Source: Torpedo marmorata (Eukaryota). From it: DNA of 64,000 bases. The position numbers and the translations under genes were made by a program. Below, piece after piece: positions 16,440-63,210 of this stretch. Location: positions 26,536,001-26,600,000 of the forward strand of contig OZ360239.1 of NCBI GenBank assembly GCA_977017645.1. The letters are read 5' to 3'. Numbering within the stretch: the first letter of the stretch is position 1; each line of letters begins with the position of its first letter. Below the pieces are notes generated by a model. The model saw only the letters and a list, made by a program, of their open reading frames with translations. It was not told the origin of the DNA and ran no database searches.

Positions 16440-16990
16440 CTCGGATCCCCTCCAAACCTCCTCCTTCTCACCTTGGATCAATGCTTTTATTTTAGACATC
16501 CCACCAAGGAAAAATGAGTCTTAGCATCTACCCTATCTATTCCCTTCATAATGGAATACACATCATCCTTCTCTCCATGAAGGACAAAACCAGTCTATTC
16601 AATCTCTCCTTATTACTGAAGTGCTCCAAACCAGGTAGTGTTTTGGTTACAATAAAAACACAGAAATAATGGAGGAACTCAGCAGGTCTTGCAGTGTCCA
16701 TAGAAGGTAAAGATATATTACCGACATATCAAGGTATGAAGAAGGGCTCAGGCCCGAAACGTCGGTAATATATCTTTACCTCCTGTGGATGCTGCAAGAC
16801 CTGCTGAGTTCCTCCGGCATTTCAGTGGTTTTACTATAATCACAGCGTCTGCAGACTTTCGTGCTTCACAAAGTTTGGTGAATCTCCTTTGCACCTGCTC
16901 CACTGCATTTGCATCCTTTCTACAGTGTGGTGATCAGAACTGTGCACAATACTCAAGTGTAACCTGACTAGTGTTTTCTAAAGATCGAAC
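16440..16990 (-). mobile_element. Old CR1 fragment interrupted by a Penelope-end fold-back insertion
   Basis: ccaggtagtgttttggt (16645) resumes as ttggtgaatctcctttgcacctgctcc...cagaactgtgcacaatactc (16875-16955). Confidence 0.65.
16652..16870. mobile_element. Fold-back element made of two inverted Penelope 3' termini, with hammerhead-like motif in the loop
   Basis: ggaggaactcagcaggtcttgcag...gatatattaccgac (16671-16725) pairs with gtcggtaatatatc...gacctgctgagttcctcc (16761-16815); TGAAGA-agggctcaggccc-GAAACGTC at about 16737-16763. Confidence 0.8.
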
Positions 16991-17629
16991 CTGGCACGGG
17001 ATCAGGGAGGCAATTTTCCCAGCATAATCTCTGTGGAGCCCAGCAGTAGAGTGAAGCAACAGTTTCAGTCTTCTTACTGTAAGAACCACAGACTAGCAGC
17101 TATTTAAATAGCTAAAGCCAATGGCCCCATCAGAATTGTCTAGGAAAATCAAGAAACATGAGATAATCGGTCAGATATCATTTGTGTCTCTGGAGGAGGC
17201 AAATGGCTGTCAGCAACATGAAGAATTGTCATTACATGGCCACTGTAATTATTTTGCCTGTTGCTTTAAACAAATAAATCCTCATGAAATCAATAGTACC
17301 ACAATTGTCTGGAGCACTTACAAATACTGGATTCTGATAACTCTTAAAATGTACAAAGCAATATGCACCAAGCCATGTGACATACTATTTCCTGTTGAAA
17401 TTGGTGATTATATTTTTAAAAATCTTCTCGCATCTTGTAACAAATTGTGGTAGAGGAGCAGGTAGCACTGTCATTAGAGCAGAGAATGTTGCAGCACAGT
17501 ACAGGTCCTTCAGCCCCACCATGTTATGCTGACCAATGTAAACCTACTCCATAACAATCTAATTTTTCATTGCCTCACGCCCATAACCCCTTATTTTTCT
17601 TGCATCATTTCGTATATTTTCTTAGCTTT

Positions 17630-18327
17630 TTAAAAAAATATTTTATTTAAAATTTTTAAATCACAAAATACATAAAATAAAATATAAAATTATCAAAATA
17701 TTTGTGATACATTTTCACCCCTCCCTCCCTCCCCAACCCCACTAATCTAATAAAAATAAAAATATAAAATAAAAATAGAAAAAGAAGAAGAAAAAAAGAA
17801 AGAAAAAGATAGAGAAAGGAGAATGCCAATCTATAAACTAATTCTATTATGGAGGTCAAGTATGCCAGTAGATCCGATATCCAGAGATCTTCAAATCCTT
17901 AAACCAACAACTTTCATATATGGGCTCCAAATTTTTAAGAAGAAATGATATTTGTTACGTAAATTATAAGTAATTTTTCAAGTGGTATACACGAACGAAG
18001 TTCTGCATGCCATCTTTCTAATCCTAAATATAAATCAGATTTCCATGTAATAGCAATACATTTCTTTGAAACAGCTAAAGCAATTCGCAAAAATTCTATT
18101 TGATACATATTTAATTTCATCTTGATACTAAATTTTCTAATATCTCCGATCAAAAATATCATAGGATCCATTGGAAATGTAATCTTAAATACTTTGTCTA
18201 AAAAATTTTTAACTTTCAACCAAAAATCATAAACTTTTGGACAAAACCATGTAGAATGTACAAAAGACCCTTCCTCTTTATTACATCTAAAACATAAACC
18301 TGATAATATCAGATTAAATTTCTTTAA
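17630..18327 (-). mobile_element. 5'-truncated L1-clade LINE with 14-bp TSD
   Basis: ORF 17935-18219 (IALAVSKKCIAITWKSD); TSD attttcttagcttt at 17616-17629 and 18328-18341. Confidence 0.9.
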
Positions 18328-19660
18328 ATTTTCTTAGCTTTCTTTATGCTCTTTGTAACGCGCCATGTGGGAAAGTCTCAAACTCGCATATCACAACTCC
18401 AGGCGCAGTGAGATGATAGATGACCAGCCCTGAGCCATTGGGAGTTCTAGGCCACTGAGGCGTTTTTGAAGTGTTGTGTGACTTGCTAAATCTGACAGCA
18501 GTGTTTCTGCCTGTGAGATACAAGCGATACACAAGGAGAAAGCCATGCTGTGTCACTGCTGACTCGGGCTTCTGAAATGTCTCCAGGAATAAACATGTCC
18601 AGGATTGCTCCTAACATGGGGTCATGGCTGCCACGGGCATTTCACAGACTTCACTAATTGATAAATTATGGATATAAATTATGGATATTTTCAGAGGCCG
18701 CTGACCGGGGCCTTCAGAAAACATACTGCTTTCGTGTAATATCAACCACCACATCATCAAATTGACCTACTGATGATATGACTATAAATATAGGTTGTAT
18801 GGTGCAATATTCAGCCTTACAACTTCAATTGAATGAAGTATCTCATTGCAAATCAAATATTGACTCCTCTCAAGAATTTTTTCCTACTATCTCACCGGCA
18901 TGGTTTGTTTCACCCCTTCTATTCTTGTATCTGAAAAATATTGAATAAAATGGAAGGCCCAAGAAAGGCAGGTGTTAAAGTCTGACTGCCCTTCCAAATC
19001 CTCTTCCAAAACTCTTTCTCCTTCTTCTTACCTACTTCTCTTCCTTGGATCATTTCCTGCTTGGTCTCTTCCTCCCTCTGTTGTGATGCCCCACATTGTC
19101 GAGATGACTTTGTTGTGGCTTTTCTTTCAGTTAAAATGAGTCATTAAGTTAGCTTTGAATAATGCTGCAATTTATTTTTTACTTGACATGTTTCACTTGA
19201 CTCGCTGGCAACTGTTGTGCTGTGTTCTTGTTCTTTTCACTGGAATGAAGTAATAATGATTTCTGACAAAATGAGGGGGGGGAAACTGTTTCTTGGAGCT
19301 TTCTGGCTGTTTGATTTTAACTGAGAACTCTGCGCCTCATCTATCAATAATGTTAAAGGAAGGTTGGGGGACCATTGCTTAGAACGTCTTTGCAAAGCCA
19401 ATGTTAATCAAGCAATATTGACGTGGAAGCGCAATATTTCCACGTTGGCGCCATACAAAAACAGGGTTTCAATGAAAAGGTGGTTCAATACGATTATCAA
19501 TCTGCTTAAAAGGCTCCAAACTGATCCAACTAAAGATTTACTCAAAGTAAAAGCCCAAGTATATCTACCATTGCATTGATCTGCTGGTAGTTTGTTTCAG
19601 CACAAATGCTCTCCATGAGGTACAGCTGAAAGAATTCACTGATCAATGCTATTTGCTCTA

Positions 19661-19873
19661 CAGTAAAACCCCTGGTATTCGGCACCTAATGGGGATTGGT
19701 AGATGCTGGATAAGAGTATTTTCCAGTCGCTTGAGTTTGCGTGTTGCATGATTGTTGAACTAACTAAAATTACGTGCCAATTTTTTACCTATTTGTTTTC
19801 CTCGATTTTTTTTTTTCACTGGTTGCTTGAGGCTGCTGGTTGCTTGAATTCCGGATAACAGGGGTTTTTACTG
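19661..19873. mobile_element. Tc1/mariner-type MITE, second copy
   Basis: TA|cagtaaaacccctggtattcgg ... ccggataacaggggtttttactg|TA. Confidence 0.85.
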
Positions 19874-20433
19874 TAGTAGGTGAATGCAATCCCAGAAGTT
19901 GTGTAATTCACCGAAACAATTTGCTTGTGACACGCCAAATATTTGGAATTTGCTGCACATTTCAAAAGCAATACAGGCTTGAAGTTTATAGACCTGTGTC
20001 AAGATCAAGAAAAGAAAGGGATTTGACAAAGGAAGTGGCCAATGTTACAGAGAAATTATGATCCATAAATAATAATCTTTACACAGGATTGTATTCTGTA
20101 GTAGAGTTTTTGTTTGCTCATTCTCACTTACCAAGTGTATTTTTTAAATTATTAAAATTAATGTACACATTAACAAAACCAACTACTTCAAAAAAAAATT
20201 ACAGTTTAAATATAGACCTGAAGATAACATAGTGAAATTATACTGAAACCACTTTGGGATGCAGGCTAGTAGATATTCCTTATGCCCTTTTGCTCGCACT
20301 TTACAAAGTACAATGCAGGTACAAGATGGGCTGAATGAAGGGAGTAGATATGAGATTATAAACCAGAAATTATTGTGATTTGATATTATTCATGTCTCAC
20401 TGTTCAGAGTCCAGTGATCATATAGCATAGAAA

Positions 20434-21465
20434 TGTCTGCTTTTTCCACAAACGTGGCTTCCCCTCCACCACCATCAACTCAGCCCTCACCCGCATCTCC
20501 TCCATTTCCCGCTCATCTGCCCTGGCCCCCTCTGCCCCCAGACACAACAAACATAGAATCCCCCTCATCCTCACCTACCACCCCACCAGCCTCCGCATCC
20601 AACACATTATCCGCCGGAATTTCCGGCACTTGCTGCAGGATCCCACCACCAGACACATTTTTCCTTCTCCTCCCCTCTCGGCCTTCCGTAGGGACCGCTC
20701 CCTCCGTGATTCACTCGTGCACTCGTCCCTCCCCACCCATCGCACCCCCGGCACCTTCCCCTGCGCCCGCAGGAGGTGCAACACCTGCGCGCACACCTCC
20801 CCCCTCACCACGGTCCAGGGCCCCAAACAGGCCTTCCAAGTGAAGCAACACTTCACTTGTACATCCAGAGGACTTATTTACTGCATCCGGTGCTCCCTTT
20901 GTGGCCTTCTATACATTGGAGAGACCGGTCGCAGATTGGGAGATCGCTTCGCTCAGCACCTCCGCTCGGTTCGCAACAACAGCGACCTCCCGGTGGCCAA
21001 CCATTTCAATTCTGGGTCACACTCCCACACTCACATGTCTGTCCATGGCCTCATGTACCATCCCACCCATACTACCCGCAAATTGGAGGAACAACATCTC
21101 ATATTCCGTCTCGGCACTCTCCAGCCAGATGGAATTAACATTGACTTTTCTGCTTTCCACTAAACCTGTTTGTTGTTCCCTTCCCCTCCCCCTCACCTGT
21201 CCTTCCTGGTTTCCTCTAGCTACCCAGCCACCCCTCCTCCCCCTCTTTACTGCTGTCCCCTCCCTCCTTTCTCCACCTATCATCTCCTGCCTTTGCCACC
21301 CCCCCCCTTCCCCCCTCACTCCTTTGTTCGGACGTCTGCCGGCATTTTCTCATACTTTGAAGAAGGGCTCAAGCCCGAAACGTCGGTTATGTATTTCCTC
21401 CTTTGCTACATAAAAGACACTGTTTGACCTGCTGAGTTCTCCAGCTTTTGTGTTTTTTACTATAA
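20434..21465 (+). mobile_element. Penelope-like element (Neptune type), 5'-truncated: RT C-terminus, Cys linker, GIY-YIG endonuclease, 3' UTR
   Basis: ORF 20630-21163 PCARRRCNTC...GLIYCIRCSLCGLLYIGETGR...QPDGIN; flanking direct repeat agcatagaaa (20424-20433, 21466-21475). Confidence 0.93.
21351..21391 (+). ncRNA. Minimal hammerhead ribozyme motif in Penelope 3' UTR
   Basis: catact-TTGAAGA-a-GGGC-tcaa-GCCC-GAAAC-GTC-ggttatg. Confidence 0.65.
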
Positions 21466-23809: not shown

Positions 23810-23939
23810 GGATACCACGAAGCTCGTGATCGACTAATGCACAGGTCCTCGAGTCAGGGTTCCATCGGCTCTCCCGTCTACAATCGTCACTGCTATACAC
23901 CCACTGTTGCCCGCTCTCCACAGCACTTTCACAGGCCTG
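23810..23939 (+). CDS. ABLIM1: ABLIM1 coding exon (130 nt, phase 0-1): GYHEARDRLMHRSSSQGSIGSPVYNRHCYTPTVARSPQHFHRP
   Basis: Acceptor ttatttcag, donor CTG/gtaagt; matches human GYQDVRDRMIHRSTSQGSINSPVYSRHSYTPTTSRSPQHFHRP. Confidence 0.96.
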
Positions 23940-26050: not shown

Positions 26051-27608
26051 TAAAATTTCTCTGCAAGTTCAAAACTTTTAATCTAACTTCTCCGAGTTCA
26101 GATAAAAATTATCGACCTGAAACATTGGGCAGGATCACACTGATTTTTTTTTTTTACCTAGCCATTTTGGGGGAAACCATTATCTAGCTGCAGTGAATGT
26201 GTCATTACAGTCCTGATTTCTGTGGCTGCATGCTGCTACAGTATATGGAGCTTGGAACAGCTGGAAGCAGATGCAGGCACAGGGTCATTCCATGTCGTGC
26301 TGAGGTCAGATACACTCTCTCTGGCCATCATCTTTAGATCAACTTATCTGGCATGTCAGTCAATTAAATGGATTTATCTTTTCTAAAATAAGAACTAGAA
26401 ATTACTATTTGTCTCAATAGCTTATTCAGTAAGATATTGGTTAGCAGAAATCAAATTGTAGTTTCTATTGCAAGAGACAAGAGCAGAAGTTAGCAATATG
26501 GCCCTCAAACTTGTTCCACGTTAAATAAGATCATGACTGGCTATGGCTTCATTTCCTCGCCTGTTCCCCACAATGTTTGATCCCATTGGATTATAAATTT
26601 GACAATTTCCCTTTGACTATATTCATTGACTCAGCCTCCACGTCTTTTCCAGGTAGAGAACTTTAAAGATTCAAGAAACCTTAATCAGGGAACCAAATTT
26701 TCTTGTTACCATAATGTTTGGCTCCAACCTGTTGTTAACAACAGATGTTAGGCTGACGGCTTCTTATATTTATTTTTTTTTTTTTGGCTTCTTATATTTC
26801 CCTCCTTATTTTGTTAAACAGAGTTGCTGCCAGACTGCCCGACCTTCTCCAGAATCTTGGAGATTTTGGAAGATGGTGACTAATGCATTCACTGTCTCTG
26901 TAGCCACCTCTTTTATAATCTAATACTCAGATTCTGAAATGCCCATCAAATTATTTAATAATTTGAAACTTCAATTTGATTATTTATACACAAGAGAATT
27001 AAGCTCTTAACGGTGTGATATATCTTGCAAAGGTTTACTGCTCAGACACTGCCAATCTTTTTAGAGGTTTGTTGTTTGTTATAGATTTTGTGCTTATAGC
27101 ATTCACCAATAATGTATGTTTAAATGCACAGAAAAAAATGGATTCACAATGATTTGCAAGAATGTGCACTCTTGGGCTCTTTACATTGATCCAGTTAAGC
27201 ACATGAAATGTTAAATGCAATCACTCTTTTCATTTTTATTTCACTCAGATATTTTTTCATTTAATCCATGGCTGCTGCCACACTTCCCTGTGCTTGTAAA
27301 TTATTCAGCAGAAATAGATTTTAAATTCATTCACTCTGTAATGCTATCTGCGACAGATTGAACCAATTCTGTGATTGCCAAAATAATTAGAGAAGTGATT
27401 TTTGGGGATAATTGGCTCTAATTGCAGTCACATTTCTGCAGAAAACCATGCAATTTTCTGTACTCTTTGACAAGTTTTCTTTTAAACACATTTATAATTA
27501 ACATTGCAATATGTCAACTGCAAGTTTCATAGCTATGACAAAAGAGCAACATAATTTGATCCATTGCTCATATTTCAATGTTTTGCAGCTAAGTATACTG
27601 TAACAATT

Positions 27609-28193
27609 AAAAAACACAAATGCTGGAGAAACTCAGCAGGTCAAACAGTGTCTTTTATGTAGCAAAGGTAGAAATACATAACCGACGTTTCGGGCTTGAG
27701 CCCTTCATCAAAGTATGAGAAAATGCCTGTAGGCGTCCGAACAAAAGAGTGAGGGGGGAAGGGGGGTGGCAAAGGCAGGAGATGATAGGTGGAGAAAGGA
27801 GGGAGGGGACAGCAGCAAAGAGGGGGAGGAGGGATGGCTAGGTAGCTGGAGAAAAACAGGAAGGACACGTGAGGGGGGAGGGGAAGGGAACGACAAGCAG
27901 GTTTATGGAAAGCAGAAAAGTCAATGTTAATGCCATCTGGCTGGAGAGTGCCGAGACGGAAAATGAGATGTTGTTCCTCCAATTTGCGGGTAGTCTGGGT
28001 GGGATAGTACATAAGGCCATGGACAGACATGTGAGTGTGGGAGTGTGACCCGGAATTGAAATGGCTGGCTACTGGGAGATCGCTGTTGTTGCGGACGGAG
28101 AGGAGGTGCTCAGCAAAGCGGTCTCCCAATCTACGACCGGTCTCTCCAATGTAGAGAATGCCACAAATAAGTTCTCTGGATGTACAAGTGAAG
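27609..28193 (-). mobile_element. Penelope-like element, 5'-truncated (GIY-YIG with internal deletion, 3' UTR)
   Basis: ORF segment HFTCTSRELICGILYIGETGRRLGDRF...; 10-bp TSD tgtaacaatt (27599-27608, 28194-28203). Confidence 0.92.
27677..27717 (-). ncRNA. Minimal hammerhead ribozyme motif
   Basis: Minus strand catact-TTGATGA-a-GGGC-tcaa-GCCC-GAAAC-GTC-ggttatg. Confidence 0.65.
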
Positions 28194-28324
28194 TGTAACA
28201 ATTGACTTTTTTTGTATCTTGCCAAAGGTCCATTATGGGGAATTCTTACAAATTCCCCATTATTCTTTCCCAAATCCCAACAAACTTAAAATCCAACACT
28301 AGTGGCTGATATGAAATTAAGTTA

Positions 28325-28465
28325 AACAAGGAAGTCTGCAGACGCTGTGATTGTAGTTTACACAAAAATGCTGGAGAAACTCAGCAATCCACGCAGCGTT
28401 CTTTATGTAGCAAAGATAAATATACATAAACAACGTTTCGGGCCAGAGCCCTTCATTCAGGTATA
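28325..28465 (-). mobile_element. Penelope 3' terminus with degenerate hammerhead motif
   Basis: Minus strand ataccTGAATGAagggctctggcccGAAACgttg ... gctgagtttctccagcattttt ... gcgtctgcagactt. Confidence 0.75.
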
Positions 28466-34497: not shown

Positions 34498-35591
34498 GAA
34501 TCACTGAGATATAAGAAAACAAATGCATTGAAATTCTTAAATCTCTTGTTTGCTTATTGATGCTTTAAAAACAAATTTACCTTCACCTAAATCCACTTCT
34601 AAGATTGCAACTTTTACCATCTGAAGGAGTAGTTCTTTTATAGGTTTCAGGAAAATTAAAATTTGGTCTGATATATTCCAATGAAATATAGAAGGATAAC
34701 ATAAAAAAACAAGGTCCAAGCAGAGGTTTTATGTGAAGTAAAATAATGAAATGAAAAGATGACAAGGATGGCTTAGTGCAGCCATAAACATTTGTTTTCA
34801 TATTTTATTTCTAATACAACCCAAATCTACTTCCCCCATTAGAAACTGCAACTCACAAATAGAAAAACAAATTTCAAATCGACAAGTTTCCTTCATTCCT
34901 CTGTACACTGACTTTATTAACCAGCAGGATGAAGGCACAATAAAGAATCTTGTGGCATCATTTCAGATCTCTGCCAGTACACAGCATTTTCCATGTTTCA
35001 ATTTTATTTGCCATATCAGCAACAATAAGCCTTTGATTCTTCATGAATCAGTGTTCTGCTTCAGCCAGTTTATTATTAAAGTACATTACTCATGATCAGG
35101 TTAAGGAGATAGACCGTAATATGGCTCTGATGAATAATTCAATATTATTGATCTTGTCAATCTCAGTTCTTGTGCTGGAAGGGGATATAAAGGAAGATTT
35201 GTATTTGATTGTTTTAAACAACTTGCCTTTTTTCAGCTCAAGCACTACTTGCTCTCGACCATTTTCTCAGCCATCTTGAGGTTATAAATGCCTGGGATTA
35301 AATGACAGGCTAATTTGAAACCATCTCTAACAAACCTTTCTCACTGAACTCTGTGTTCTAATCACACTGTCCCTGTGTAATAAGAAACTGGCAATCTAAC
35401 AGGTTAACCCGGCACAATAGTGTCCTCAATCTGTTTGGGTGACATACTGGTCTTGTATCATTTGCAATGTTGCTTATTTTGAGGATGCCTTCTGTTGCTG
35501 TGAGCCTCTCAATCACTGTACTACATTTGGCTTGTACAGGCCATTCCTTGTTACATACTCAGCCTACACCTAATACTGTTCCTGACCAGAG

Positions 35592-37067
35592 TTGCCCTCT
35601 GCCCCCAGAAATTCTCCCCTGGTCCAATCCCTCCTCACCTACATCCGCGACACCTCACATGCCCTCCATCTCCTCAATGACTTCAGATTCCCTGAACCGG
35701 TCTGCATCATCTTCACCATGGATGTCCAATCCCTTTATACCTCTATCCCCCACACAGAAGGTCTGAAAGCGCTTCGCTTCTTCCTGGACCAAAGAACCGA
35801 CCAGTCACCCTCTACCACCACCCTCCTACGCCTGGCAGAACTTGTCCTCACTCTCAATAACTTCTCCTTCAACTCATCCCACTTCCTCCAAATCAAAGGA
35901 GTAGCCATGGGTACCCGCATGGGTCCCAGCTACGCCTGCCTGTTTGTGGGCTTTATGGAGAAATCCATGCTGCAAGCCAACACAGGCAATACCCCTCATC
36001 TCTTCCTCCGTTATATCGACGACTACATCGGGACTGCCTCATGCACCCGCGATGAGCTTGTCAACTTCATCCACTTCGCATCCAACTTCTACCACTATCT
36101 CAAACTCACCTGGTCCATCTCCGATAATACTCTCCCCTTCCTGGATCTCTCTGTCTCCATCTCAGGAGACAAGCTTTCCACCGACATTTACTACAAACCC
36201 TCCAACTCCCACAACTATCTGGACTACACTTCCTCACACCCTGTCCCCTGCAAGGATTCCATCCCCTTCTCTCAATTTCTCCGTCTCCGCCGCATCTGTT
36301 CCCAAGATGAGGTCTTCCAGTCCAGATCTTCTGAAATGTCTGCCTTCTTCCACAAACGTGGCTTCCACTCCACCACCATCAACTCAGCCCTCACCCGCAT
36401 CTCCTCCATTTCCCGCTCATCTGCCCTGGCCCCCTCTGCCCCCAGACGCAACAAACATAGAACCCCCCTCATCCTCACCTACCACCACACCAGCCTCCGC
36501 ATCCAACACATTATCCACCGGAATTTCCGGCACTTACTACAGGATCCCACCACCAGACACATTTTTCCTTCTCCTCCCCTCTCGGCCTTCCGCAGGGACT
36601 GCTCCCTCTGCGATTCCCTCGTGCACTCATCCCTCCCCACCTATCGCACCCCCGGCACCTTCCCCTGTGCCCGCAGGAGGTGCAACACCTGCGCCCACAC
36701 CTCCCCCCTCACCACGGTCCGGGGCCCCAAACAGGCCTTTCAAGTGAAGCTACACTTCACTTGTACATCCAGAGAACTTATTTACTGCATCCGGTGCTCC
36801 CTTTGTGGCTTTCTCTACATCGGAGAGACCGGTCGTAGATTGGGAGATCGCTTTGCTGAGCACCTCCTCTCCGTCCGCAACAACAGCGACCTCCCAGTAG
36901 CCAGCCATTTCAATTCCGAGTCACACTCCCACACTCACATGTCTGTCCATGGCCTTATGTACTATCCCACCCAGACTACCCGCAAATTGGAGGAACAACA
37001 TCTCATTTTCTGTCTGGGCACTCTCCAGCCAGATGGCATCAACATTGACTTTTCTGCTTTCCACTAA
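35592..37067 (+). CDS. Penelope RT plus GIY-YIG endonuclease ORF (N-terminus truncated, no native start)
   Basis: Motifs FTMDVQSLYTSI, QIKGVAMG, LRYIDD, LPFLDL, DIYYKP, PCARRRCNTC, LIYCIRCSLCGFLYIGETGR. Confidence 0.88.
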   Translation: MPSAPRNSPLVQSLLTYIRDTSHALHLLNDFRFPEPVCIIFTMDVQSLYTSIPHTEGLKALRFFLDQRTDQSPSTTTLLRLAELVLTLNNFSFNSSHFLQIKGVAMGTRMGPSYACLFVGFMEKSMLQANTGNTPHLFLRYIDDYIGTASCTRDELVNFIHFASNFYHYLKLTWSISDNTLPFLDLSVSISGDKLSTDIYYKPSNSHNYLDYTSSHPVPCKDSIPFSQFLRLRRICSQDEVFQSRSSEMSAFFHKRGFHSTTINSALTRISSISRSSALAPSAPRRNKHRTPLILTYHHTSLRIQHIIHRNFRHLLQDPTTRHIFPSPPLSAFRRDCSLCDSLVHSSLPTYRTPGTFPCARRRCNTCAHTSPLTTVRGPKQAFQVKLHFTCTSRELIYCIRCSLCGFLYIGETGRRLGDRFAEHLLSVRNNSDLPVASHFNSESHSHTHMSVHGLMYYPTQTTRKLEEQHLIFCLGTLQPDGINIDFSAFH

Positions 37068-37354
37068 ACCTGCTTGTCTTTTCCTTCCCCTCCCCCCTCA
37101 CCTGTCCTTCCTGTTTTTTTCCACCCACCCAGCTAACCCTCCTCCCCCTCTTTGCTGCTGTCCCCTCCCTCCTTTCTCCACCTATCATCTCCTGCCTTTG
37201 CCACCCCCCCTCATTCTTTTGATCAGACGCCTGCTGGCATTTTCTCATACTTTGATGAAGGGCTCAAGCCTGAAACGTCAGTTATGTATTTCTACCTTTG
37301 CTACATAAAAGACACTGTTTGACCTGCTCAGTTTCTCCAGCATTTGTGTTTTTT
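35595..37354 (+). mobile_element. Penelope-like element (Neptune type), 5'-truncated but young
   Basis: Stop-free 491-codon frame; 7-bp TSD agagttg (35588-35594, 37355-37361). Confidence 0.95.
37246..37286 (+). ncRNA. Minimal hammerhead ribozyme motif
   Basis: catact-TTGATGA-a-GGGC-tcaa-GCCT-GAAAC-GTC-agttatg (one G-U in stem II). Confidence 0.6.
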
Positions 37355-37592
37355 AGAGTTGTATTAGCTCTTATCAGTGATTTTTTTAAAAAAAAACCTT
37401 GCCCAATCCTGTACTGAACCAAACTAATAACATGCTAACCATGTATGTTGTTGGACTTGTCTTGAACAGTGACATACGCGGTACATGCATGGTTATGTAC
37501 TAAACCTCTCTGATACTGCAGCGAATGTAGCTTGGTACTGGACCAAGCCTATCACATTTAATTTCATCTTGAATGATGATGATAACTTCCTC

Positions 37593-38483: not shown

Positions 38484-40424
38484 GTATTGTTCTACTTTGT
38501 TTTTGACTTCTGATAACTTGATATATTGCAGTGCAAGTTGTCTTTTTTGTTTTTTTCCATAATTTTTTCTTGAATTATTATGACTAATATTAAGGATGTT
38601 GTACACTAGATGATAGATAAGGTCATATTTAAGAGACTTTCCTCATGGCCATTTGGGTACCAGATCAAATTCCAGAATTAAGAGTGTCATTTTCACTGAG
38701 GACTAGCACTCCGGCCCACATCTCCAGTGAGTGGCTAACCTCACTAGCCAAGATGAAAGTCAGGGAGAAATGTGTCATCTTTTCAAGCACTCGCCTTTCT
38801 TTCCAAACCACTACAAATAATATGGAGATGGGCACAAAGTTGGATTAAACACAAGCGTTTATGGAGACAATTTACCGGTAGTACTTTTTTTTATTGCTTT
38901 CACTAACGTTGGAGAATTGAAAACATTTCCCATTGTAACGATGTGAACGTTATTCAATTTATACGCTTGCTCCCGTGAGTGCAATTGCAGATTCAGCACC
39001 AAACAGTGCCTGATTATAAAGGGTCTATTTTTCAAACCCAAACTCCCTCAGAACTGGATTGAGATTAACAAATTAATTCCTTCCAGAAAGAACTTGCTAC
39101 CAACAGCTGGATGAGTATTCCCTTAACATGACTTCATAACTTGGTTCCATGGGTATAAAATTAATAACGGTATCGTTCAATATCAATTGTCATTTTGTGA
39201 AAATTGTTTTTTTTCTAATGTCAATAGAACTTTTCAGTATGAGGTTTACAGTAGTTTAAAGGACACTTTAAGTTTGATGCCTGATCCATTTCCTTGATTC
39301 TTTATCATTCATTATAGTTTTGCTCATGTTTTTGATTTTGGCTCATTTTTCTATTAATATGTCCCTTGTTTTCCTGCTAACAATGCTCAGATTAATCCGT
39401 AAGTGCTGTTTGCTTGTGAATTTCCTTAGCTGTAGGTCTTCCTAAACGTCTAACTAATTTTAATGCTTCAAATAAACATTTCTGCAGCAAATTATCATTT
39501 TGGAATGTTTAAGTAACATAAACTCTTTACAACTCTTTTAAACTCAAAAGATGCATTGAAGGAAATTGTCATTTAAGCATTATATGCAAATTCAGTGTTA
39601 AACACTTTATCTAGTATAAATCAAGTGTATTCATAAATCCCACAATCAATCACTTTCATAGGGAAGGTAGATTAGATAATCAGTCTCGCAGCAGCGACTC
39701 TGTCATGTTCCCTTTTTGAATGATGCCTTTCAATCAAAGCATGAATGAAGAACTTACCAAATTGTGACAAAAAAACTGTAAATGACCCTCTTTCTAAACC
39801 TATTTGCTTGTCTCAGGATTCCAATGGTAAAAAGAGAATATATTTCTACATTATCAGGCCTACTATGATGTAGGGCTGACCTTTTGAAGCAAAGGAATTT
39901 AAATTTTTTTCCATCAGAACCCTCTTCCCTTCAATTGCTTTTAAAACCTGTGCTCTGTCCAATAATAATGATTTCATTTCTACCACGTAAAAATAACACA
40001 AATAGATTTAATCATCTAATTAAAGAGTTGGTGTGGAAATATTCAGCATTAAAAGATTTGTTCTTTAAACCCACATTTATTGCCACATGTACTAAGGTAC
40101 ACTGAGAAAGTTTGTTTTGCATGCAATCCAGCTAGTCAACCCATACCTGGTTCAGCGATAAAAACAGTTCAGAATGCTGAGTTAGAGAGATCACTTAGAA
40201 CAGAGCAAAATCAATATTAATTTACTTGTTTGAAGTTCGTTTGGAAATCTGATAGTAAAACAAAATGCATCGCTTGCCTGCATTAATGTCTCTCTTGCTT
40301 CATCTCTGAGATTTATGAGGAAGTTCTCTGGCAATTAAATTGGGGAATTGGAAGACCACTTGGAATTTCGACTCTGTGTAACTTGTCTGTAACTGTGGTC
40401 AGTTTCGGGCTGTTCCTCAAACCA

Positions 40425-41070
40425 GCTGAGGCAGAGCTTTGTGCATTCACATCATCCAAACTAATCTACTGCATTCAGTGTACTGGATGTGGCCTCCTCT
40501 ACGTTGGTGGAACCAAACCTAGATTGGGTGATCACTTTGGCTCTGTTATGGGTCTAAGCGTGAGCTCCTAGTAGCCAACCATTTTAATTCCTTCATTATT
40601 CCCACATTGATATCTGTCCTTGGCCTTGTCCATTGCCAGAGTGAGGCCAAATGTAAAGCTGAGGAACTACACTTCATGTTCCTTCAGAACAGCTTTAAAT
40701 CCAATGCCATGAACATCATTTTTTCTAAGTTTAGGTAACCCCCTACCTCTATCTTGGTTCCACTGTTTCTTTCCCTTTAACTACTCCCATTCTTATTTTT
40801 CTCTCCCACATTTCACCCCACCCCCCAATCCCCCAATGGTCTCTCCCTCTGCCTGTTCTCCACCTCCCGCATCTGTCCAATACCCAATCAGCTCTTCGCC
40901 CCTTCCCAGCTTCTTCCTCCCCTTGATATAGTTGCCATCTCCCCTTCCCTCTTTAGTCTCTGTGATGGGTCCAGACCCAAAACGTTGATTGACCATTTAC
41001 CCCAAGATGCTGCCTGATCTGCTGAGTTCCTCCAGCAGCTCATTGTTTGCATTTGCAGTTTTTGTATTTC
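40425..41070 (+). mobile_element. Decayed Penelope-like element (GIY-YIG region and 3' UTR)
   Basis: TSSKLIYCIQCTGCGLLYVGGTKPRLGDHF; 3' end gggtccagacccaaaacgttga...gctgagttcctccagca. Confidence 0.8.
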
Positions 41071-41446: not shown

Positions 41447-42050
41447 GAGTCACCTTTCGGATCCTTGCTCAAAGAATTTGGATTGCGAAAGGTCGAGATT
41501 CAACAGTTTGCATTTATATCTGCCCTCCTCCATCTCTTCCTTGGGAATTGGAAGATTTCACTTCAACATAGAGTTACCCTTGCATTTGTCAACATCCTAA
41601 TTGCACTCTGTGCAAACAGTTTCCACGTCAATTGAAATTGTTTCACAAAAAAGTCTGGACAAAATTAATGGCCAGGTTAAATTAACTTGAGGCGTGGTGT
41701 ATGCTGAACTAAGCGAATATTGAGTATTGCAGACAACATTTTTGGGAATCACTTTTAATATACAAGGCATACATTATTCAGAATGTGACAGGTTCAATAA
41801 TATGAGATCTCATTTTAAATTTACATATGGCTTGTCTTTGAGACTAACCAATTATAAAATGACTAGTATGATGATTTGATGACAAACAGAATGTGATTAC
41901 TCTATGCCAAATAAATATGACTTGTATTTGCAATGATGACATTTCACTAAGTGCGCCAATTAGCAAAGGGCCAATGCAAGCTGATGGGGAACCTCCAGTC
42001 TATTGCAGACCTACTGACATGTGCTGAGTTCCCACTGATTGCCACTCTAG

Positions 42051-42188
42051 ATGCAGTTGCAATGGCAGCCCAACTCAAAAGAGGCGTGGAGATCATCAAG
42101 TCATCCAAGTTCCCTGCTGCCCAGGCTCCAGATCCTGATCAGACTTCTGAGGAGGAGACTGACTACTGGCCAGGTCCAGGTATCATAG
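42051..42188 (+). CDS. ABLIM1: ABLIM1 coding exon (138 nt, phase 1-1): DAVAMAAQLKRGVEIIKSSKFPAAQAPDPDQTSEEETDYWPGPGII
   Basis: Acceptor ccactctag (alternative atgcag 6 nt downstream), donor TAG/gtatga; conserved IIKxSKFPAAQAPDP...ETDxWPGP. Confidence 0.93.
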   Translation: MQLQWQPNSKEAWRSSSHPSSLLPRLQILIRLLRRRLTTGQVQVS

Positions 42189-49524: not shown

Positions 49525-50330
49525 GTAACAAAAATAAAGATTGCTGGAAGTACTCAGCAGGTCAAACAGCATCAGCAGGGAGAATAAAAGAGTCAACTTC
49601 TCAGGCCAGGGACCCTTCAACACAACAGAAGAAATGAAATGGCAAGTGTATTTTAAGTTGCATGGAGGAGAAGATGAAAAAAACCAGAGGAAATGTTTGT
49701 GATAGGTTCCAGACTAAAGAAGTCATGGTAATCATTACTATAAAGATCAGAAGTTCAAGCAAAATTATACAGAAATAAATTGTCACAAAACAAGTTAAAA
49801 GAGAACGGCTGCCACATCTGCTGGAGAAAGAAGGAGAGATCTCCTGAGGTTACTAAACTCTGAGATTATGTTTTGCATCTTGTAGCATGTCCTCAAGCTT
49901 ACTTACATCTCCATTGGAGGCCAGAGATATTGGAATGGAAGTGGGATAGAGAAATAAAATGACTGATAACTAGAAGCTCAAGGTCCCCCTTCCAAACTGA
50001 ACAGAGTGTTCTGGGAGGCACGCCATCTGTGTGGCTTTCTCCAATGAACAGGAGTCCACATCATGAGCGCCAAATGCAGTGCACTAAATTGGAAAAAGAG
50101 CAAGGAAATCACTATCACACCTAGAAGGACTGTTTGAGATCTTGGATGTTGGAAGGGAAGAGGTAAAAGAGGATCTCAAGGAAAACCAGGATTCTGGCTG
50201 GGATGTGAGAGCACTTTCCAGTTTCTGATCCTAACTCAACTCTTCCACGCTTCCATCCCACACTGAGATATGCTGAGGGTCCTTCTTCCTTGAAGAAGTG
50301 CTGAGTTTTTCTAGCTTTTTCTGTTTTTAA
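49525..50330 (-). mobile_element. Decayed Penelope-like element with inverted terminal piece
   Basis: tgctggaagtactcagcaggtcaaacagc at the start; ctccaatgaacaggagtccaca...atgcagt is reverse GIY-YIG; tgctgagtttttctagc in opposite orientation near 50300. Confidence 0.6.
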
Positions 50331-50481: not shown

Positions 50482-52431
50482 GAAATAGGAGAGAAGAAGC
50501 CACAAGAATTTATATATAAATGGAATTCAAAACTGTTGACAGGTGTTAAAGAAACACCGTTATTAAAACATTAGAACATAACATGCGAATTGTTTTAGCG
50601 GTTTCAAAAAAATGTATTGCCATTACTTGGAAATCAGATTTAGATTTGAATTTAGATAGATTGCATGCAGAATTACGTTCATGTATACCATTGGAAAAGA
50701 TTACATATAATTTACGTAATAAATATCATTTCTTTTTGAAAATTTGGAGCCCATATATGAGAATTATGGGTATGAATTAATTCTCTAGAAGTCGGCTCCG
50801 CTGGCGAAATTAACCTCCAATATATAAATAGAATTAGCTTGTAATTTGTTTTCTCCTCACTTTAATTCTTTAATTCTTTATTATTCAACTTTTTTCTTTT
50901 TTTATATAATCTTTTTTTTTCTTCTTTTTTTTTAATTTTTAGAGTAGTGGTGGGGGGGTTGGGGGGGGGAGGGTGGGAGGGGGGGAGGAAATATATCACA
51001 TGTACTTGGAATGATATATTATTTTTGATCTATGTATTTTGTGATTTTAAAAATTTAAATAAAATTATATTTAAAAAAAACAAAAAAAAAAAACATTTGA
51101 TTAATGCTTGGAATAAGGTTAATGACGATATAGGATTAAAAGGAAATATATCACCTAAAATGCCATTGATACAGAACAATCTGATACCATTTACAAAAGA
51201 TAACCCTTTTTTAAATACATGGTCATTAAAAGGAATAAAGAAAATAGAAGATTGTTATGAAGGAAATCAAATGATGTAATTCATACAATTACAGAATAAA
51301 TACGGAATACCTAGAAATACATTTTTTTGCTATCTTCAACTAACAGCTTATTTAAGAGGAAAATTAGGTCCAGACATGTTGTTACAAGAGTGTAGCGAAG
51401 TAGAAACTATTATTAGGAAAGGAAACACTAAGAAATTTACCTCTATAGTATATTCTTTGTTACAGAAGGGAGCTCAAAAACGAGGACTTCATAAGTCCAG
51501 ACAAAGATGGGAACAAGATCTTAATATTATAATTGATGAAAAAAGATGGTCGGATCTATGCTTAGATAGTATGACTAATACTGTTAATGTAAGATATAGA
51601 CTGGTACAATACAACTTCTTACACCAAATATTCCTCACACCACAAAAACTGAACAAGATGAATTCTACAATACCAAATAGATGTTTTAGATGTGGAGAAG
51701 AAGCAGGAACATTCTTACATTCAACGTGGTCATGTTCAAAAGTTAAAGATTTTTGGGCAGAGTTAGGAAACCGGTTAAAACTAGTTACAGGTATTACATT
51801 TCCTCAAAACCCTGACTTGTTCTTATTGGGGAATGTAGAGGGAGCTAGACCAAAATTGAAATTATCCATATGGCAATTAAAATTCGTAAAAATTGCACTA
51901 GCAGTAGCTAGGAAATGTATAGCAGTGACCTGGAAATCGGACACAAATCTGAGTATGAGTAGATGGAATTCAGAGATGCAGAGTTGCATCCCATTGGAAA
52001 AAATAACATACAATATGAGGAATAAGTATGGACTCTTTTTACAAATTTGGCGTCCATTTATCCAATTATCAGGAATGAATATTTAAATATGTTGCCCTGC
52101 ATCCCAGACCCCGCTGACTCTCTTAAGTTTAAATTTGAAGAATGAACATTGTTGAATTTCTTGCATCGAGCCATGGATATGTACAGATATATTTTCAATT
52201 GTTCTTTTCCCTTCTCTTTTCTTTTTTAGTTCTAGTATGGGGAGGGGATAAGGGATGGGAAGGGTGGAGGGTGGGTTGTTTTAGTAAGGGTGGTTTAGAT
52301 GGGGTTAGATTCATGGTAATACGAAATTCCTATGTATCGAATTTAACTGATGTTTAATGTATATTTTACATTATTTTGTATTATTGTGAAAAAGTTGAAA
52401 ATCTTAAAATAAAATATTAAAAAAAAAAAAA
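50482..52431 (+). mobile_element. 5'-truncated L1-clade LINE with 13-bp TSD, containing a nested L1
   Basis: TSD atggcatcggtga (50469-50481, 52432-52444); ORF 51376-52086 with CFRC...HSTWSC zinc finger; poly-A tail. Confidence 0.92.
50573..51089 (+). mobile_element. Second L1 family inserted inside the L1 above
   Basis: TSD aaaacatt (50565-50572, 51090-51097) at a TT/AAAA site; host frame ...KETPLLKH|LINAWNK rejoins on removal. Confidence 0.88.
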
Positions 52432-53310: not shown

Positions 53311-53334
53311 GTGTTCTGCTGTGCAATGGAGATT

Positions 53335-55456: not shown

Positions 55457-55690
55457 ATCACCCAGCCATCCCTCCTCCCCCTCTTTGCTGCTGTCCCCTC
55501 CCTCCTTTCTCCACCTATCATCTCCTGCCTTTGCCACCCCCATTCCCCCCTCACTCTTTTGTTCAGACACCTGCTGGCATTTTCTCATACTTTGATGAAG
55601 GGCTCAAGCCCGAAACGTTGGTTATGTATTTCTACCTTTGCTACTTAAAAGACACTGTTTGACCTGCTGAGTTTCTCCAGCATTTTTTAA
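55457..55690 (+). mobile_element. Penelope 3' UTR-only insertion with hammerhead motif (55586-55626)
   Basis: Near identical to 37127-37345; catactTTGATGAagggctcaagcccGAAACgttggttatg. Confidence 0.88.
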
Positions 55691-55699
55691 TTGTAAAGT

Positions 55700-57290
55700 A
55701 CAACTGGACGAAACAACATTCTTCGGTCCTCGGTGTAAAAACATGCAAACACATATAAAGCCATAGCACACATATTTACAAGCAATTTATATGCAGTACA
55801 TATATAAAAATAAATAAATATTGTTAATTAATAGTAGATTCTCAGAGGGAATTGTATGAGCAGTTCATCAGTCATTCAGCAGTCTAACTCCCCGTGGGAT
55901 GAAGCTGTTTCCCAGACTGGTGGTTCTGGCTCTGATACTTCTGTATCTCTTTCCTATAACCATATAACCATATAACAATTACAGCACGGAAACAGGCCAT
56001 TAGGCCCTTCCAGTCCGCACCGAACCAAAACATTCCTATCTAGTCCCACCTACCTGCACCTTGCCCATAACCCTCCACTTCCCTCTCATCCATATACTTG
56101 TCCAACTTTTTCTTAAATACTAAAATTGACTCTGCCGCCACTACTTCTCCCGGAAGCTCATTCCACACCACTACCACTCTCTGAGTAAAGAAGTTCCCCC
56201 TCATGTTACCTCTAAACCTCTGCCCCTTAACTCTTAGCTCATGTCCTCTTGTTTCAATCTCTCCTATTCTTAATGGAAATAGTCTATCCACATCCACTCT
56301 GTCTATCCCTTTCATAATTTTAAATACCTCTATCAAATCCCCTCTCAACCTTCTACGCTCCAAAGAATAAAGACCTAATCTGCTCAATCTCTCCTTGTAC
56401 TCTAGATTCTTAAACCCAGGTAACATTCTGGTAAACCTTCTCTGCACTCTCTCCACTTTGTTGATATCCTTCCTATAATTTGGCGACCAGAACTGCACAC
56501 AGAACTCTAAATTAGGCCGCACCAAAGCCTTATATAATCTCAACATCACTTCCCAACTCCTATATTCTATGCATTGATTGATGAAGGCCAGCATACTAAA
56601 AGCCTTCTTCACCACCCTATTCACATGAGTTTCCACCTTCAGGGAACGATGCACCGTTATTCCTAAATCTTTCTGCTCTTCTGTATTCATCAATGCTCTC
56701 CCATTTACTACATATGTCCTGTTCTGATTCTTCTTTCCAAAATGAAGCACCTCACACTTATCAGCATTAAACTCCATCTGCCATTTTTCAGCCCACTTTT
56801 CTAAGCAGCCCAAATCCTTCTGCAATCCTTGAAAACCTTCTTCATTATCCACTATTCCACCTATCTTGGTATCATCTGCATATTTACTAATCCAGTTTAC
56901 CACCCCATCATCTAGATCATTGATATATATAACAAACAACAATGGGCCCAATACAGATCCCTGAGGCACACCGCTTGTCACGGGCTTCCAACCTGACAAA
57001 CAATTATCCACTACCACTCTCTGGCCTCTCCCCTCCAGCCAATGTTCAATCCATTTGACTATCTCAGAATCTATACCTAAAGACTGCACCTTCCTCACTA
57101 ACCTTCCATGCGGAACCTTATCAAAGGCCTTACTGAAGTCCATATAGACAACATCCACTGCACTACCCTCATCCACAGTCCTAGTCACCTCTTCAAAAAA
57201 TTCAATCAGATTGACGGGAGTTGCTGGAAGATGCTGTGTGCAGGGTGGTAGGGGTCCTCAACGATTTTGCAAGCCCTCAGACAACGATCC
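55700..57290 (-). mobile_element. Rex-Babar 3' fragment split by the CR1 at 55956-57211
   Basis: Joined minus strand reads KIVEDPYHPAHSIFQQLPSGKRYRSIRARTTSLGNSFIPR. Confidence 0.8.
55956..57211 (-). mobile_element. Young 5'-truncated CR1 LINE with open RT frame (56040-57188)
   Basis: 382 aa without stops: DVVYMDFSKAFDKVPH, SGVPQGSVLGP, KYADDT; tandem (ataaccat) 3' tail at 55956-55976. Confidence 0.95.
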
Positions 57291-58154: not shown

Positions 58155-59072
58155 CATAGAACATTACAGCACAGAAAATAGACCCTTCAGCTCTTCTAGT
58201 CTGTGCCAAACTATTATTCTCCTTAGTCCCACTGACCTGCACCCAGTCCATAGCCCTCCATACCTCTCCCATCCATGTACCTGTCCAAATTTTTCTTGAA
58301 TGTGAAATTTGAGCCCGCACACACCACTTCAGCTGGCAGCTCGTTCCAAACTCCCACTACTTTCTGTGTGAAGAAGTTCCTCTTGATGATCCCCATAAAC
58401 TTTTCCCCTTTCACCCTTAACCCATGTCCTCTGGCTTGTATCTCACCTAACCTCAGTGGAAAAAGTGTACTTGCATTCATTCTGTTTATACCCCTCATAA
58501 TTTTAAATACCTCTATCAAATCTCCCCTTATTCTTCTACGCTCCAAGGAATAAAGTCCTAACCTGTTTCACCTTTCCCTGTAACTCGGTTCTTGAAGTTC
58601 CGGCAACATCCTAGTAAATCTTCTCTGCACTCTTTCAATCTTATTGATATCTTTCCTGTAGTTAGGTGACCAAAACTACACAATACTCCAAAAAGGTACA
58701 GGAGCCTAAAGACGAGCACTCAACGGCACAAGGACAGCTTCTTCCCCGCTGCCATCAGATTCCTGAATAATCAATGAACCAAAGACACTGCCTTACTTTT
58801 CGTGCACTATTTTAAAAAAATTTATTGTTGTAAGGTGGTTTATGTGAATGTTTGCACTATGATGCTGCCGCAAAACAACGAATTGCATGACTTGTTCATG
58901 ATAATTGATTCTGATTCTGAAATTTGGCATCACCAATTTCTAACACAACATTTCAACTCCTGTACTTAATACTTTGATTTATGAATGCCAATATGCCAAA
59001 AGCTCTCTTTACAACCCTGTCTACCTGTGATGCCACTTTCAGGGAATTATGTATCTGTATTCCCAGATCCCT
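58155..59072 (-). mobile_element. CR1 LINE 3' part split by a Rex-Babar insertion
   Basis: ORF 58223-58546 ERRRIRGDLIEVFKIM; caatactcca (58690) resumes aatttggcatcacc (58921). Confidence 0.88.
58692..58920 (+). mobile_element. Rex-Babar 3' end nested in CR1
   Basis: aaaggtacaggagcctaaagac...gattctgattctga, near identical to 34262-34497. Confidence 0.88.
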
Positions 59073-59167
59073 CTGGGGAACAGATACACAATAAGCAAAC
59101 CCATGATATCACTACTTCATTGACCTAAAACATGCAAAAGCTGATTATACATTCTTCTCTTTGTTAG

Positions 59168-59228
59168 CCACTGTCAACAGATTTCACACAGTACGACAGC
59201 TACAGTGATGTAAGCGAAGGTGTCAGAG
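59168..59228 (+). CDS. ABLIM1: ABLIM1 coding exon (61 nt, phase 0-1): PLSTDFTQYDSYSDVSEGVR
   Basis: Acceptor ttcttctctttgttag, donor GAG/gtaagg; matches PVSTDFAQYNSYGDVSGGVR. Confidence 0.94.
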
Positions 59229-59273
59229 GTAAGGATGTCTGTCTGGCTTGTGTTTCTGTTCATGTCTATCCAG

Positions 59274-59281
59274 ATTATAAA
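59274..59281 (+). CDS. ABLIM1: Candidate ABLIM1 8-nt microexon ATTATAAA (phase 1-0; D-Y-K) or in-frame extension of the 59168 exon
   Basis: Acceptor tttctgttcatgtctatccag, donor AAA/gtatgt; resembles human DYQ, but the preceding intron would be only 45 nt. Confidence 0.3.
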
Positions 59282-60654: not shown

Positions 60655-60765
60655 GCGAAACATGAAAGTCTGCAGACACTGTGATTGTAGTCAAAACACA
60701 GAAATGCTGGAGGAACATCTATGGTTGAGACTGGTTGAGTTCCTCCAACATTTCTGTGTTTTGTC
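60655..60765. repeat. Small fold-back of Penelope termini
   Basis: caaaacacagaaatgctggaggaac (60692-60716) pairs with gttcctccaacatttctgtgttttg (60739-60763). Confidence 0.8.
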
Positions 60766-61404
60766 TTTGTAAATGAGTGAGCACAAGCTTCATCTGCTGA
60801 TTTGAAATGCATCTGCCTGTTATTTTAATGGGGTATTTACACCACCACCCTAATGAAGCAATGAACAGAGGAATTTAATTAGCTGGACCCAAGTCTCCAC
60901 TGTGCTGCTGGAGGAAGGACGGGAAACAAAACAGATCTAGTCATGTTGAAGGAAATAGCATATAAAGATGAGTTTATTCATGGTGTTATAATATTAACAA
61001 TAGACAGGCCAAACTGAGCCTGATTTTAATGCACCACAAATTAGTCATAGAGTCACACAGGATGGGAACAAACCACTCATCCCACTGCAGCACAGTGACC
61101 ATCCATATTAATTCCATCTTCCGCACTTGGCCCATAGCCATCTGTGCCCAGGTGATTCAAGAACTCACCTAGAAAAATGCTATCAGGAGATCTGCTCCCA
61201 CCACTCTCAGGCAATCCATTCCGTGGACCATCGAAAAAGATGGATGTGAAGGGATGCATATATTTTCTTCTGAAATAAAAAAAGTAGTTTTATTTTTTTT
61301 TTAAATAACTCAACAATGACAAAAATAGTAGCTGAGGAAAGGTGGTGTTTATATCCGAACCAGATGGCTGAGTTCCTGTTAACTCTTTGCTGCTCAGAAT
61401 CAGA

Positions 61405-63210
61405 CATTGAGAAGCAGACAAACAATTGCCGGAGGAACTTAGCATCTGTAAGTAGAAATGATCAGTCAACGTTTCAGGTCTGGGCCCTTTATCAAGACTA
61501 AAGGGAAGAGGGTGATAGAAGGAGAAAGAAACTGGGGAGGGGTCAAGAGGTGATAGGGCAGGCGGTGTGAGAAATGGAGAGACGGGCAGAGACTACTGTT
61601 GGGGGTTGGAGAAAAGGTAGAGGGGAGAAAGTAAGTGCAGGATTAGGGAAGCCCTGATGGTACATGTTGGTTGGATGTGGGGTAGTATTGATAGTAATGG
61701 TGGAAGGAATCTTTGTGCTAACTCCCCACCTATTGAAGGTAAATACATCTTGGCAGCAGAAAAAGTCATGGATATACTCATTTGTACACTTGGGCTCTTT
61801 TTTTCAAGGCATGGCTCCTCAGCTCTTCCTCTGCTTCATTGACAACTACATTGGTGCTTCCTCCTATACTCATGATGAGCTCGTTGACTTCATTCTCTTA
61901 GCTGCCAACTTCCACCCTGATCTCAAATTCACTTGGTCCATCTCTAGCAGCCCTCTTTCCTTTCTAGATTTCTCTGTCTCCATCTCAAGTGAAAACTCCT
62001 GATAGACATTTTCTACAAACCCACCAACTCCCACAGTTATCTCGACCACACCACTTAACACACTGTTCCCTGTAAGGATTCTATTCCTTTCTCAAAATTT
62101 CTACGTCTCCGTTGCATGTTGTCCCAGGATGAGGTCTTCCATGCAAGATCATCGGAGATGTTCTCCTTCTTCAAAAAATGTAGCTTTCCCTCTACCATCA
62201 ATTCTGCCATCACCCACACATCTGCTCTGGCCCCCTCTGCCCCCAGACCCAAAAAGGACAAGATTTACCTTGTCCTCATCTACCACCCCACCAGCCTCTG
62301 CATCCAACAAACCATCTTCTGTAATTTCCACCACCTAAAATGTGATGCTACCACTAGACAAATCTTCCCCTCTCCACCTTCCACAGGGACTGCTCCCTCC
62401 ATGACTCCCTTGTCCACTCCTCCCTTCCTACCAATCGGCCTCTTGGTACCTACCCCTGTGACTGCACTTGCACCCACACCACCTCCCTCACCACCATTCA
62501 GGGCCCCAAACAGTCCTTCCAAGTGAAGCAGCACTTCACTTGTGAATCTGTGGGGGGTCATCTACTGCATCCGGTGCTCCCGTTGTGGCCTCCTCCACAT
62601 TGGAGAGACTGGACGCAGACTGGGAGATCACTTTGTTGAGCACCTTCGCTCTGTCCTCTGCAATAGAGTGCATCTCCCAGTGGCCACCCATTTCAATTCC
62701 CCGTCCCATTCCCATGCCGACAGGTCGATCCATGGTCTTATGCACAGCAAAACTGAGACCTCCTACAAATTGGAGAAACAACACCTTGTATTCTGTCTAG
62801 GCACCTTCCAACCAGATGGCATTAATATCGACTTCTCCGATTTACGTTAGCCCCCCACCCCACCCCCCCCCCAACGTCTCTTCCCCTTTCCCTATCCCTC
62901 TGTCTCCTTTCCTCCAGCTCTGCATTCCCCACCACTCACCTGATCAATTCTCAGCTTTTCTATCCTGCCCTCTTATCCATGTCCACCTATGGCCTCTTGG
63001 CTGTTGGCCTGTGCTCCTCCCCTGCCCCTTCTTCCCTCCTCCCCGGCCTTTGTATTCAGGCATTTTGCTCATACCTTGACCAAGGACTCAGGCCTGAAAC
63101 AACGTTGATACATCTTTTCCTTCTAAGGACACTGCGGGAACTGCTGAGTTTCTCCAGTTAATACATTATTAACTACAATCACAACGTCTGCATACTTTCT
63201 TGTTTCACTC
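61405..63210 (+). mobile_element. Older Penelope-like element with inverted 3' segment at its 5' end
   Basis: RT remnants FIDNYIGA...FTWSIS...FLDFSVSIS (from about 61800), GIY-YIG ORF 62542-62850; reverse-oriented terminus with hammerhead-like motif at about 61405-61500. Confidence 0.85.

Follow-up and report, generated by a model that had tools for sequence, protein, structure and literature searches.

The window of DNA analyzed here, 64,000 nucleotides of Torpedo marmorata contig OZ360239.1 (positions 26,536,001 to 26,600,000), contains a host ABLIM gene (2931 to 59228, forward strand) whose introns carry copies of a short hammerhead-like motif together with fragments of a Penelope-like element (PLE), a retrotransposon. 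Exons of the gene at 2931–3008, 9768–9921, and 23811–23939 were identified with the Pfam AbLIM_anchor domain; further likely exons at approximately 38440, 42050–42188, 46580, 48800, 54240, and 59168–59228 were located with known peptide motifs or by scanning for splice sites. Two candidate exons had no Pfam match, and the exon for the villin headpiece is found 4.5 kb beyond the window. The gene is probably ABLIM1, a name reached by elimination, because two other paralogues best match ABLIM3-like and ABLIM2 headpiece structures.

A strict pattern combining the hammerhead core and stem II matched four times in the window and not once in each of 20 Markov-shuffled windows. Position 3 of the core in these copies is at 21357(+), 27711(−), 37252(+), and 55592(+). 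The first, at 21351–21391, belongs to a young family and has stem I (21351–21356 with 21385–21391), U3 at 21357, G8 at 21362, a GGGC/GCCC stem II, the ACGU palindrome, and a predicted cut after GUC at 21384. The copy at 37246–37286 (U3 at 37252, GUC at 37279) has undergone CpG decay to G10.1-U11.1 and A1.1, and that at 55586–55626 (U3 at 55592) has a GUU triplet and lies within a 230-base stub, 55459–55690. The fourth is part of an antisense PLE fragment (27608–28197, reverse strand) whose hammerhead is intact (U3 at 27711, C17 at 27684); this fragment could pair with any of the three sense copies, being complementary to each, and it shares its intron with one of them, the copy at 37252.

The first-pass annotation had listed nine places at which the motif recurs, and all nine carry the motif or a relative of it, each within about 10 bases of where it had been placed. 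Three of the nine (27711, 28459, and 61494) are antisense to the host gene, and five are degenerate. The copy at 16736 has A3 and has lost stem I; it is located inside a long hairpin formed by a head-to-head pair of 3′ ends (16644–16870; 87-base arms, −129 kcal/mol) in which the minus-strand copy has no core. The copy at 28459(−) has a broken core (CUGAAUGA) and is carried by an antisense stub (28360–28463) whose start coincides with the motif's front edge. The old-family copy at 40958–41046(+), with stems AGUC/GAUU and GGGU/ACCC, has G12A and an otherwise broken core, and a GIY-YIG remnant lies upstream of it at 40287–40568. An old-family antisense copy at 61418–61498(−), with position 3 at 61494, has the core UUGAUAAA and a mismatch in stem II. 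The copy of intermediate age at 63070–63158(+), with position 3 at 63076, has G8C and an insertion after GAAAC and is predicted to be dead; a Penelope open reading frame (ORF) remnant precedes it at 61817–62847. A hidden Markov model (HMM) search of the window gave 13 matches, the additional ones being the inverted arm, at 16731(−), and three old copies, at 49622(−), 55235(−), and 32625(+).

The carrier of the motif was identified from the sequences adjoining it. The 21351 copy lies at the end of a 5′-truncated PLE (20426–21460, forward strand) consisting of a reverse transcriptase (RT) thumb, a C-x4-C-x2-C linker, the end of an ORF with an endonuclease (EN) domain of the GIY-YIG type, a 3′ untranslated region, and a pseudo-long terminal repeat (pLTR) ending in TTTTAC; the ORF, which has RT and GIY-YIG domains, stops at about 21160, approximately 197 bases before the motif. 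The longest PLE fragment of the window (35586–37355, forward strand) has an open frame of 493 codons that matches RT (RVT_1) at E = 6e-6 and GIY-YIG at E = 0.005, both matches falling slightly below the curated Pfam cut-offs; the pLTR likewise follows this frame. The linker, CARRRCNTC, precedes GIY-YIG and is of the CX2-5CxxC type common to Neptune and Nematis, its C-x4-C-x2-C spacing being the one described for these groups (PMC8557442). Counted from position 3, almost every young copy terminates at +101 to +103, in TTTTAC; many carry a 36-base tail past +103 that also ends in TTTTAC (about +139), and head-to-head pairs of copies are common. The copies thus show the hallmarks of EN-containing PLEs: 5′ truncation, inverted pLTR partners, and a 30–40-base tail are known marks of Penelope-like insertions (PMC8557442; PMC11167929). 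The proposal that the motif is a Penelope minimal type I hammerhead without helix III was therefore borne out, with the motif sitting in the pLTR of an RT/GIY-YIG element.

The layout matches the published consensus of the minimal hammerhead ribozyme (min-HHR), and the core boxes (Y)UGANGA(H) and GAAA are both present. In common with the min-HHRs in the pLTRs of metazoan PLEs (Cervera and De la Pena 2014; PMC4209133), the motif has the type I order, no helix III other than ACGU, an extra nucleotide at 9/10.1 (base 9a), a G10.1-C11.1 pair, a short stem I, a pLTR position, and mostly single truncated copies. It differs from them in that stem II has just 4 bp, U3-G8 dominates (about 143,000 matches), and families with C3-G8, U3-A8 (often with C4), and U3-G8 coexist in one genome. 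Variant PLE hammerheads treated in a review (PMC6765202) likewise have a reduced stem III and are described as cleaving as dimers. The palindrome, which the first-pass annotation had given as AACGT, is not self-complementary in that form; the actual palindrome is ACGU at 15.1–16.1 (AACGUU in copies with GUU), followed by the C or U of the NUH triplet. The window search with hammerhead models that had been suggested gave no hammerhead family in Rfam at E values up to 10, and no helix III formed on folding, so the motif lacks the stable three-helix junction within one molecule, as well as the C3-G8 pair, of a canonical hammerhead. The silence of Rfam would be expected of a form that has no helix III. 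A 2017 paper by Lunse, Weinberg and Breaker reportedly, by its title, concerns variant PLE hammerheads that cleave as dimers, and may list U3-type variants.

Non-LTR retrozymes (bioRxiv 10.64898/2026.07.22.740005) also have type I hammerheads related to those of PLE pLTRs, but they form tandem arrays with neighboring ribozymes, each unit having a complete hammerhead, whereas the window copies are single ends dispersed at kilobase spacings. Elsewhere in the genome, four head-to-tail 60-base units with hammerhead-like cores (C3 with A8, GUA triplet) were found (L093–L096; G000:C1:25411156-25411363), which we read as a small tandem array, retrozyme-like in form.

The core of the window copies reads UUGANGA, as the first-pass annotation had stated. 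The register is fixed by stem I: among 56 distinct copies, pair 2.1-1.1 was C-G in 32, U-G in 16, U-A in 4, and unpaired in 4. A register with C3 one base earlier was rejected, since stem I would not pair. In 50 young copies selected independently of the core, position 3 was U in all 50 and position 8 was G in 48 of 49. Decay of C3 was rejected as the source of U3, because every one of these copies has U3, at a site that is no CpG. Nor is U3 explained by a hairpin of its region with 9a-10.2, for which the pairing probability did not exceed 0.05 in any of the eight copies that were folded. On these sequences we conclude that U3 is inherited from the master elements.

Covariation was determined on 66 of 72 HMM-chosen copies (six with indels were left out), of which 56 were distinct. 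Pairing was retained in 87.9% of 448 cells, 29 cells were changed on both sides, none of 500 shuffles gave a value as high, and slid controls gave 20–54%. The 3-8 pair in the 56 copies was U-G in 37, C-G in 8, U-A in 8, and unpaired in 3, so that 53 of the 56 pair at this position. Absence of covariation had been named beforehand as one half of what would speak against a ribozyme; stems I and II covary across families, which removes that half. An older family was selected by the stems GUC/GAC and GGGU/ACCY with the core unconstrained, yielding 854 matches. In a hand count of the first 100 of these, positions 3 and 8 were U-A in 55, C-G in 13, U-G in 11, C-A in 11, and other combinations in 10; the association between the two positions had an odds ratio of 5.9 (p = 0.0009, relatedness uncorrected), and many of the older-family matches also had C4. 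The 61494 copy of the window belongs to the U3-A8 family.

A tree of 94 sequences built without positions 3–9a separated the C-G, U-A, and U-G groups, so that core state follows lineage; 30 added old-family loci were stem-selected, and the tree, having neither support values nor an outgroup, gives no order of the core states. Median nearest-neighbor identity was 0.73 for C3-G8, 0.79 for U3-A8, and 0.94 for U3-G8. Because older relatives have C3-G8 or U3-A8, covariation between lineages includes the 3-8 pair as well as the two stems, I and II. This covariation and the lineage-separated core states argue that the hammerhead fold is genuine and has been maintained between master lineages. At the level of single genomic copies, core positions in the 50 young copies differed at 4 of 498 (0.8%) and flanks at 78 of 3882 (2.0%); selection on single copies was rejected as nonsignificant (p = 0.076). 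The CpGs of the stems and of the cut site show 10–11% decay.

Two side observations concern the older lineages. The older Penelope family (L241–L270; 61418–61498(−) and 40958–41046(+) in the window) has U3-A8, often with C4, in the form UCGAUAAA, whose CpG decays to give TTGA or TCAA; a single natural family thus combines two changes of the core. A further old group has CUGAUGCA, with C at position 9.

The same data bear on whether the resemblance to a hammerhead could be due to chance or to mere repeat homology, with U3 as decayed C3. The missing Rfam match and the modest monomer folding z-scores, −0.3 to −1.6, would suit such an origin. It does not account for a U3 that is invariant in the young copies at a non-CpG site, the double-sided changes in both stems, the U3-A8 pair at the family level, or a layout the same as the published consensus. 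We regard this explanation as refuted by the covariation and the fixed U3, and as scarcely credible. The first-pass annotation had considered the U3 core unusual; it has a published precedent and is therefore not new. Cervera and De la Pena (2014; Fig. S3, PMC4209133) printed UUGAAGAA, with U3 and G8, for the PLE of Saccoglossus kowalevskii(1), as well as U3-A8 cores in Schistosoma mansoni, and natural U3-A8 was reported by Perreault 2011 (PMC3088659). A literature search on C3U, U3-G8, U3-A8, and cartilaginous-fish hammerheads found no paper devoted to a U3-G8 core, although supplements could hold one; shark, skate, Callorhinchus, and Leucoraja gave no match in the one supplement file of Cervera and De la Pena 2014 that was searched (PMC4209133).

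The motif is abundant throughout the 6.2-Gb genome. An exact 27-mer occurred 63,171 times, and a loose core pattern had 150,501 matches, compared with 946 for a reversed control. U3 was present in 95% of the loose matches (about 143,000) and C3 in 7,180. A separate U3-A8-type pattern had 5,469 matches. One repeated family (L071, L074, L075, L085, and L097) matches the loose core although its stem II does not pair at all; as a false positive, this family inflates the C3 count. The ABLIM locus is not enriched: the 13 HMM matches of the window compare with 9.2 expected (P = 0.14) from 115 matches in 800 kb, sampled as 80 evenly spaced 10-kb stretches, and the four strict motifs compare with 2.6 expected from 33 in the same 800 kb. 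The suggested link of the motif to ABLIM1 thus found no support, the density in the window being that of the genome.

The 5′ ends of copies were examined for traces of cutting. Break-point matches numbered 4,664 at −8 to 0, 855 at about −19 to −12, and 935 at about +24 to +36, a range that includes the cut site. The cluster at −8 to 0 (L171–L200), at the front edge of stem I, is approximately fivefold higher than neighboring windows and is not at the cleavage site; it may be caused by a transcript start, a pause, or microhomology. The commonest 5′ start is −4, where TAC-TT resembles both 3′ end sites. Starts at exactly +28 were found in 5 of 30 fetched truncated loci (one being an internal deletion) and in about 10 of 100 matches listed. 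A concentration of 5′ ends at the cut site, such as cutting in vivo might leave, was rejected, there being no clear peak among the 13 positions, and the idea that cut Penelope RNAs are released fared no better, since copies show no preferential start at the cleavage site. Because copies run through the predicted cut to +103 or +139, their templates would have been uncut at the site; because copies pass the cut site and often stop just before the motif, reverse transcription would have used uncut RNA. In G000:C1:57775806-58060274, a stretch of 285 kb, an identical junction recurs in 11 of the 100 listed matches at −8 to 0, pointing to local segmental amplification.

These ends agree with the behavior of the Anolis carolinensis element Poseidon (Frangieh et al. 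2024; PMC11167929), which also has a minimal hammerhead in its pLTR, an uncut RNA template, and two fixed reverse-transcription start sites that give a 30–40-base tail; Poseidon differs in its C3-G8 core and in an ORF that begins within stem II. The anole hammerhead was reported to cut only with the PLE protein and to be unnecessary for insertion, and no RNA-seq ends were reported at its site (PMC11167929). In a full mutational scan of a type III hammerhead (PMC9901934), activity was low in every single and double mutant within the CUGA turn except for a C-G to G-C swap; because of this, the U3-G8 wobble is predicted to lower cleavage activity.

The U3-G8 lineage might have lost catalysis altogether, with the fold kept as a protein-binding site or as a landmark of the RNA 5′ end, so that the most successful Penelope family would move without self-cleavage. 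This view, which departs from the one we prefer merely in degree, draws on the low activity of single core mutants (PMC9901934), the unaffected insertion of anole elements with core mutations (PMC11167929), the gathering of 5′ ends at the front edge rather than the cut site, and the wobble family being both the youngest, by nearest-neighbor identity, and the largest. It must also explain why U4, G5, A6, G8, A9, G12, A13, A14, A15.1, and U16.1 and the NUH triplet were kept across subfamilies, why position 3 always stays pairable with position 8 at the family level, and why a distant PLE has the same U3/G8 core (PMC4209133). Complete loss of catalysis is, in our estimate, a possible but unlikely outcome.

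The first-pass annotation had also proposed that sense copies in ABLIM1 pair with one another through ACGU, nick the introns of the pre-mRNA, and release small Penelope RNAs, with an effect on the host gene. Three sense copies in the window, and only three, do retain the core, stems, and triplet, and min-HHR dimers cleave in vitro, with low activity. These near-intact copies are 15.9 and 18.3 kb apart, however, each in a different intron, and helix III alone contributes only about −3 kcal/mol. The hammerhead dimer folded at −15 kcal/mol, compared with −18.6 to −20 for two separate monomers and −26 to −30 for other dimers. The antisense copy at 27608–28197 forms duplexes of −90 to −96 kcal/mol with each 54-base sense ribozyme region, an advantage of approximately 75 kcal/mol over the hammerhead dimer, and its pairing with the two longer sense copies extends to about 540 bases. 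In four ABLIM-family genes (414 kb) there was no depletion of sense copies, strict matches being 11 sense and 4 antisense and HMM matches 30 and 23. With neither this depletion nor local enrichment, and with the wobble predicted to reduce activity further, nicking of the host transcript is unsupported and, we think, very improbable. The 16644–16870 hairpin and the antisense 27608–28197 copy would form long double-stranded RNA in the pre-mRNA, a possible editing substrate.

We conclude, with a probability of roughly 0.86, that the motif is a minimal type I hammerhead in the 3′ pLTR of an abundant Penelope-like retrotransposon, that its U3-G8 form is predicted to cut weakly and likely only as a protein-assisted dimer, and that the ABLIM copies are likely inert passengers. 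Selection would have preserved the fold in the master lineage, in which two pLTRs would share one transcript; cutting would likely occur only in the dimer aided by the element's own protein, reverse transcription would proceed from uncut RNA, and inserted copies would then decay. In host pre-mRNA, splicing would separate the copies or antisense copies would hold them in long duplexes.

Several points weigh against this conclusion. The copies are related, so the covariation counts represent few independent events. The three break-point patterns used different anchors and were not normalized, and there may be a small excess of starts at the cut site. The slightly better-kept core may reflect weak selection on copies. 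The ViennaRNA energies leave out tertiary contacts and proteins. The orientation test was small, at four genes, and the reported depletion of tandem retrozymes from Xenopus introns, which would also suit nicking of host transcripts, indicates that active ribozymes within genes can be selected against.

Other repeats are present in the window. What we take to be the remains of a Ty3/Gypsy-like LTR retrotransposon, with gag-, protease-, RT/RNase H-, and integrase-like frames, lie in an ABLIM intron at 4899–8698(−), broken into several frames. The sequences at 56043–57257(−), 58226–58567(−), 51280–52083(+), 532–879(+), and 17938–18333(−) are presumably fragments of other non-LTR retrotransposons, with CR1-like and L1-like RT ends.

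In itself the finding is an ordinary one, a known ribozyme motif within dead copies of a known class of retroelement. If host nicking did occur, pre-mRNAs could be cut by intronic copies numbering in the tens of thousands; nothing here indicates that they are. The useful addition is that related families have three states of the 3-8 pair, and that the most successful of them has the wobble. It is conceivable, although we hold it doubtful, that this pair has walked through C-G, U-A, and U-G within one genome, and that the youngest family (about 143,000 copies), having the weakest pair, U3-G8, needs no cutting or cuts only when bound by protein, its motif marking the RNA 5′ end where copying stops. 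If so, the hammerheads of PLEs would be protein-gated switches or structural landmarks and not plain processing ribozymes. Families with three different 3-8 pairs provide natural variants with which to address whether PLEs need hammerhead cutting.

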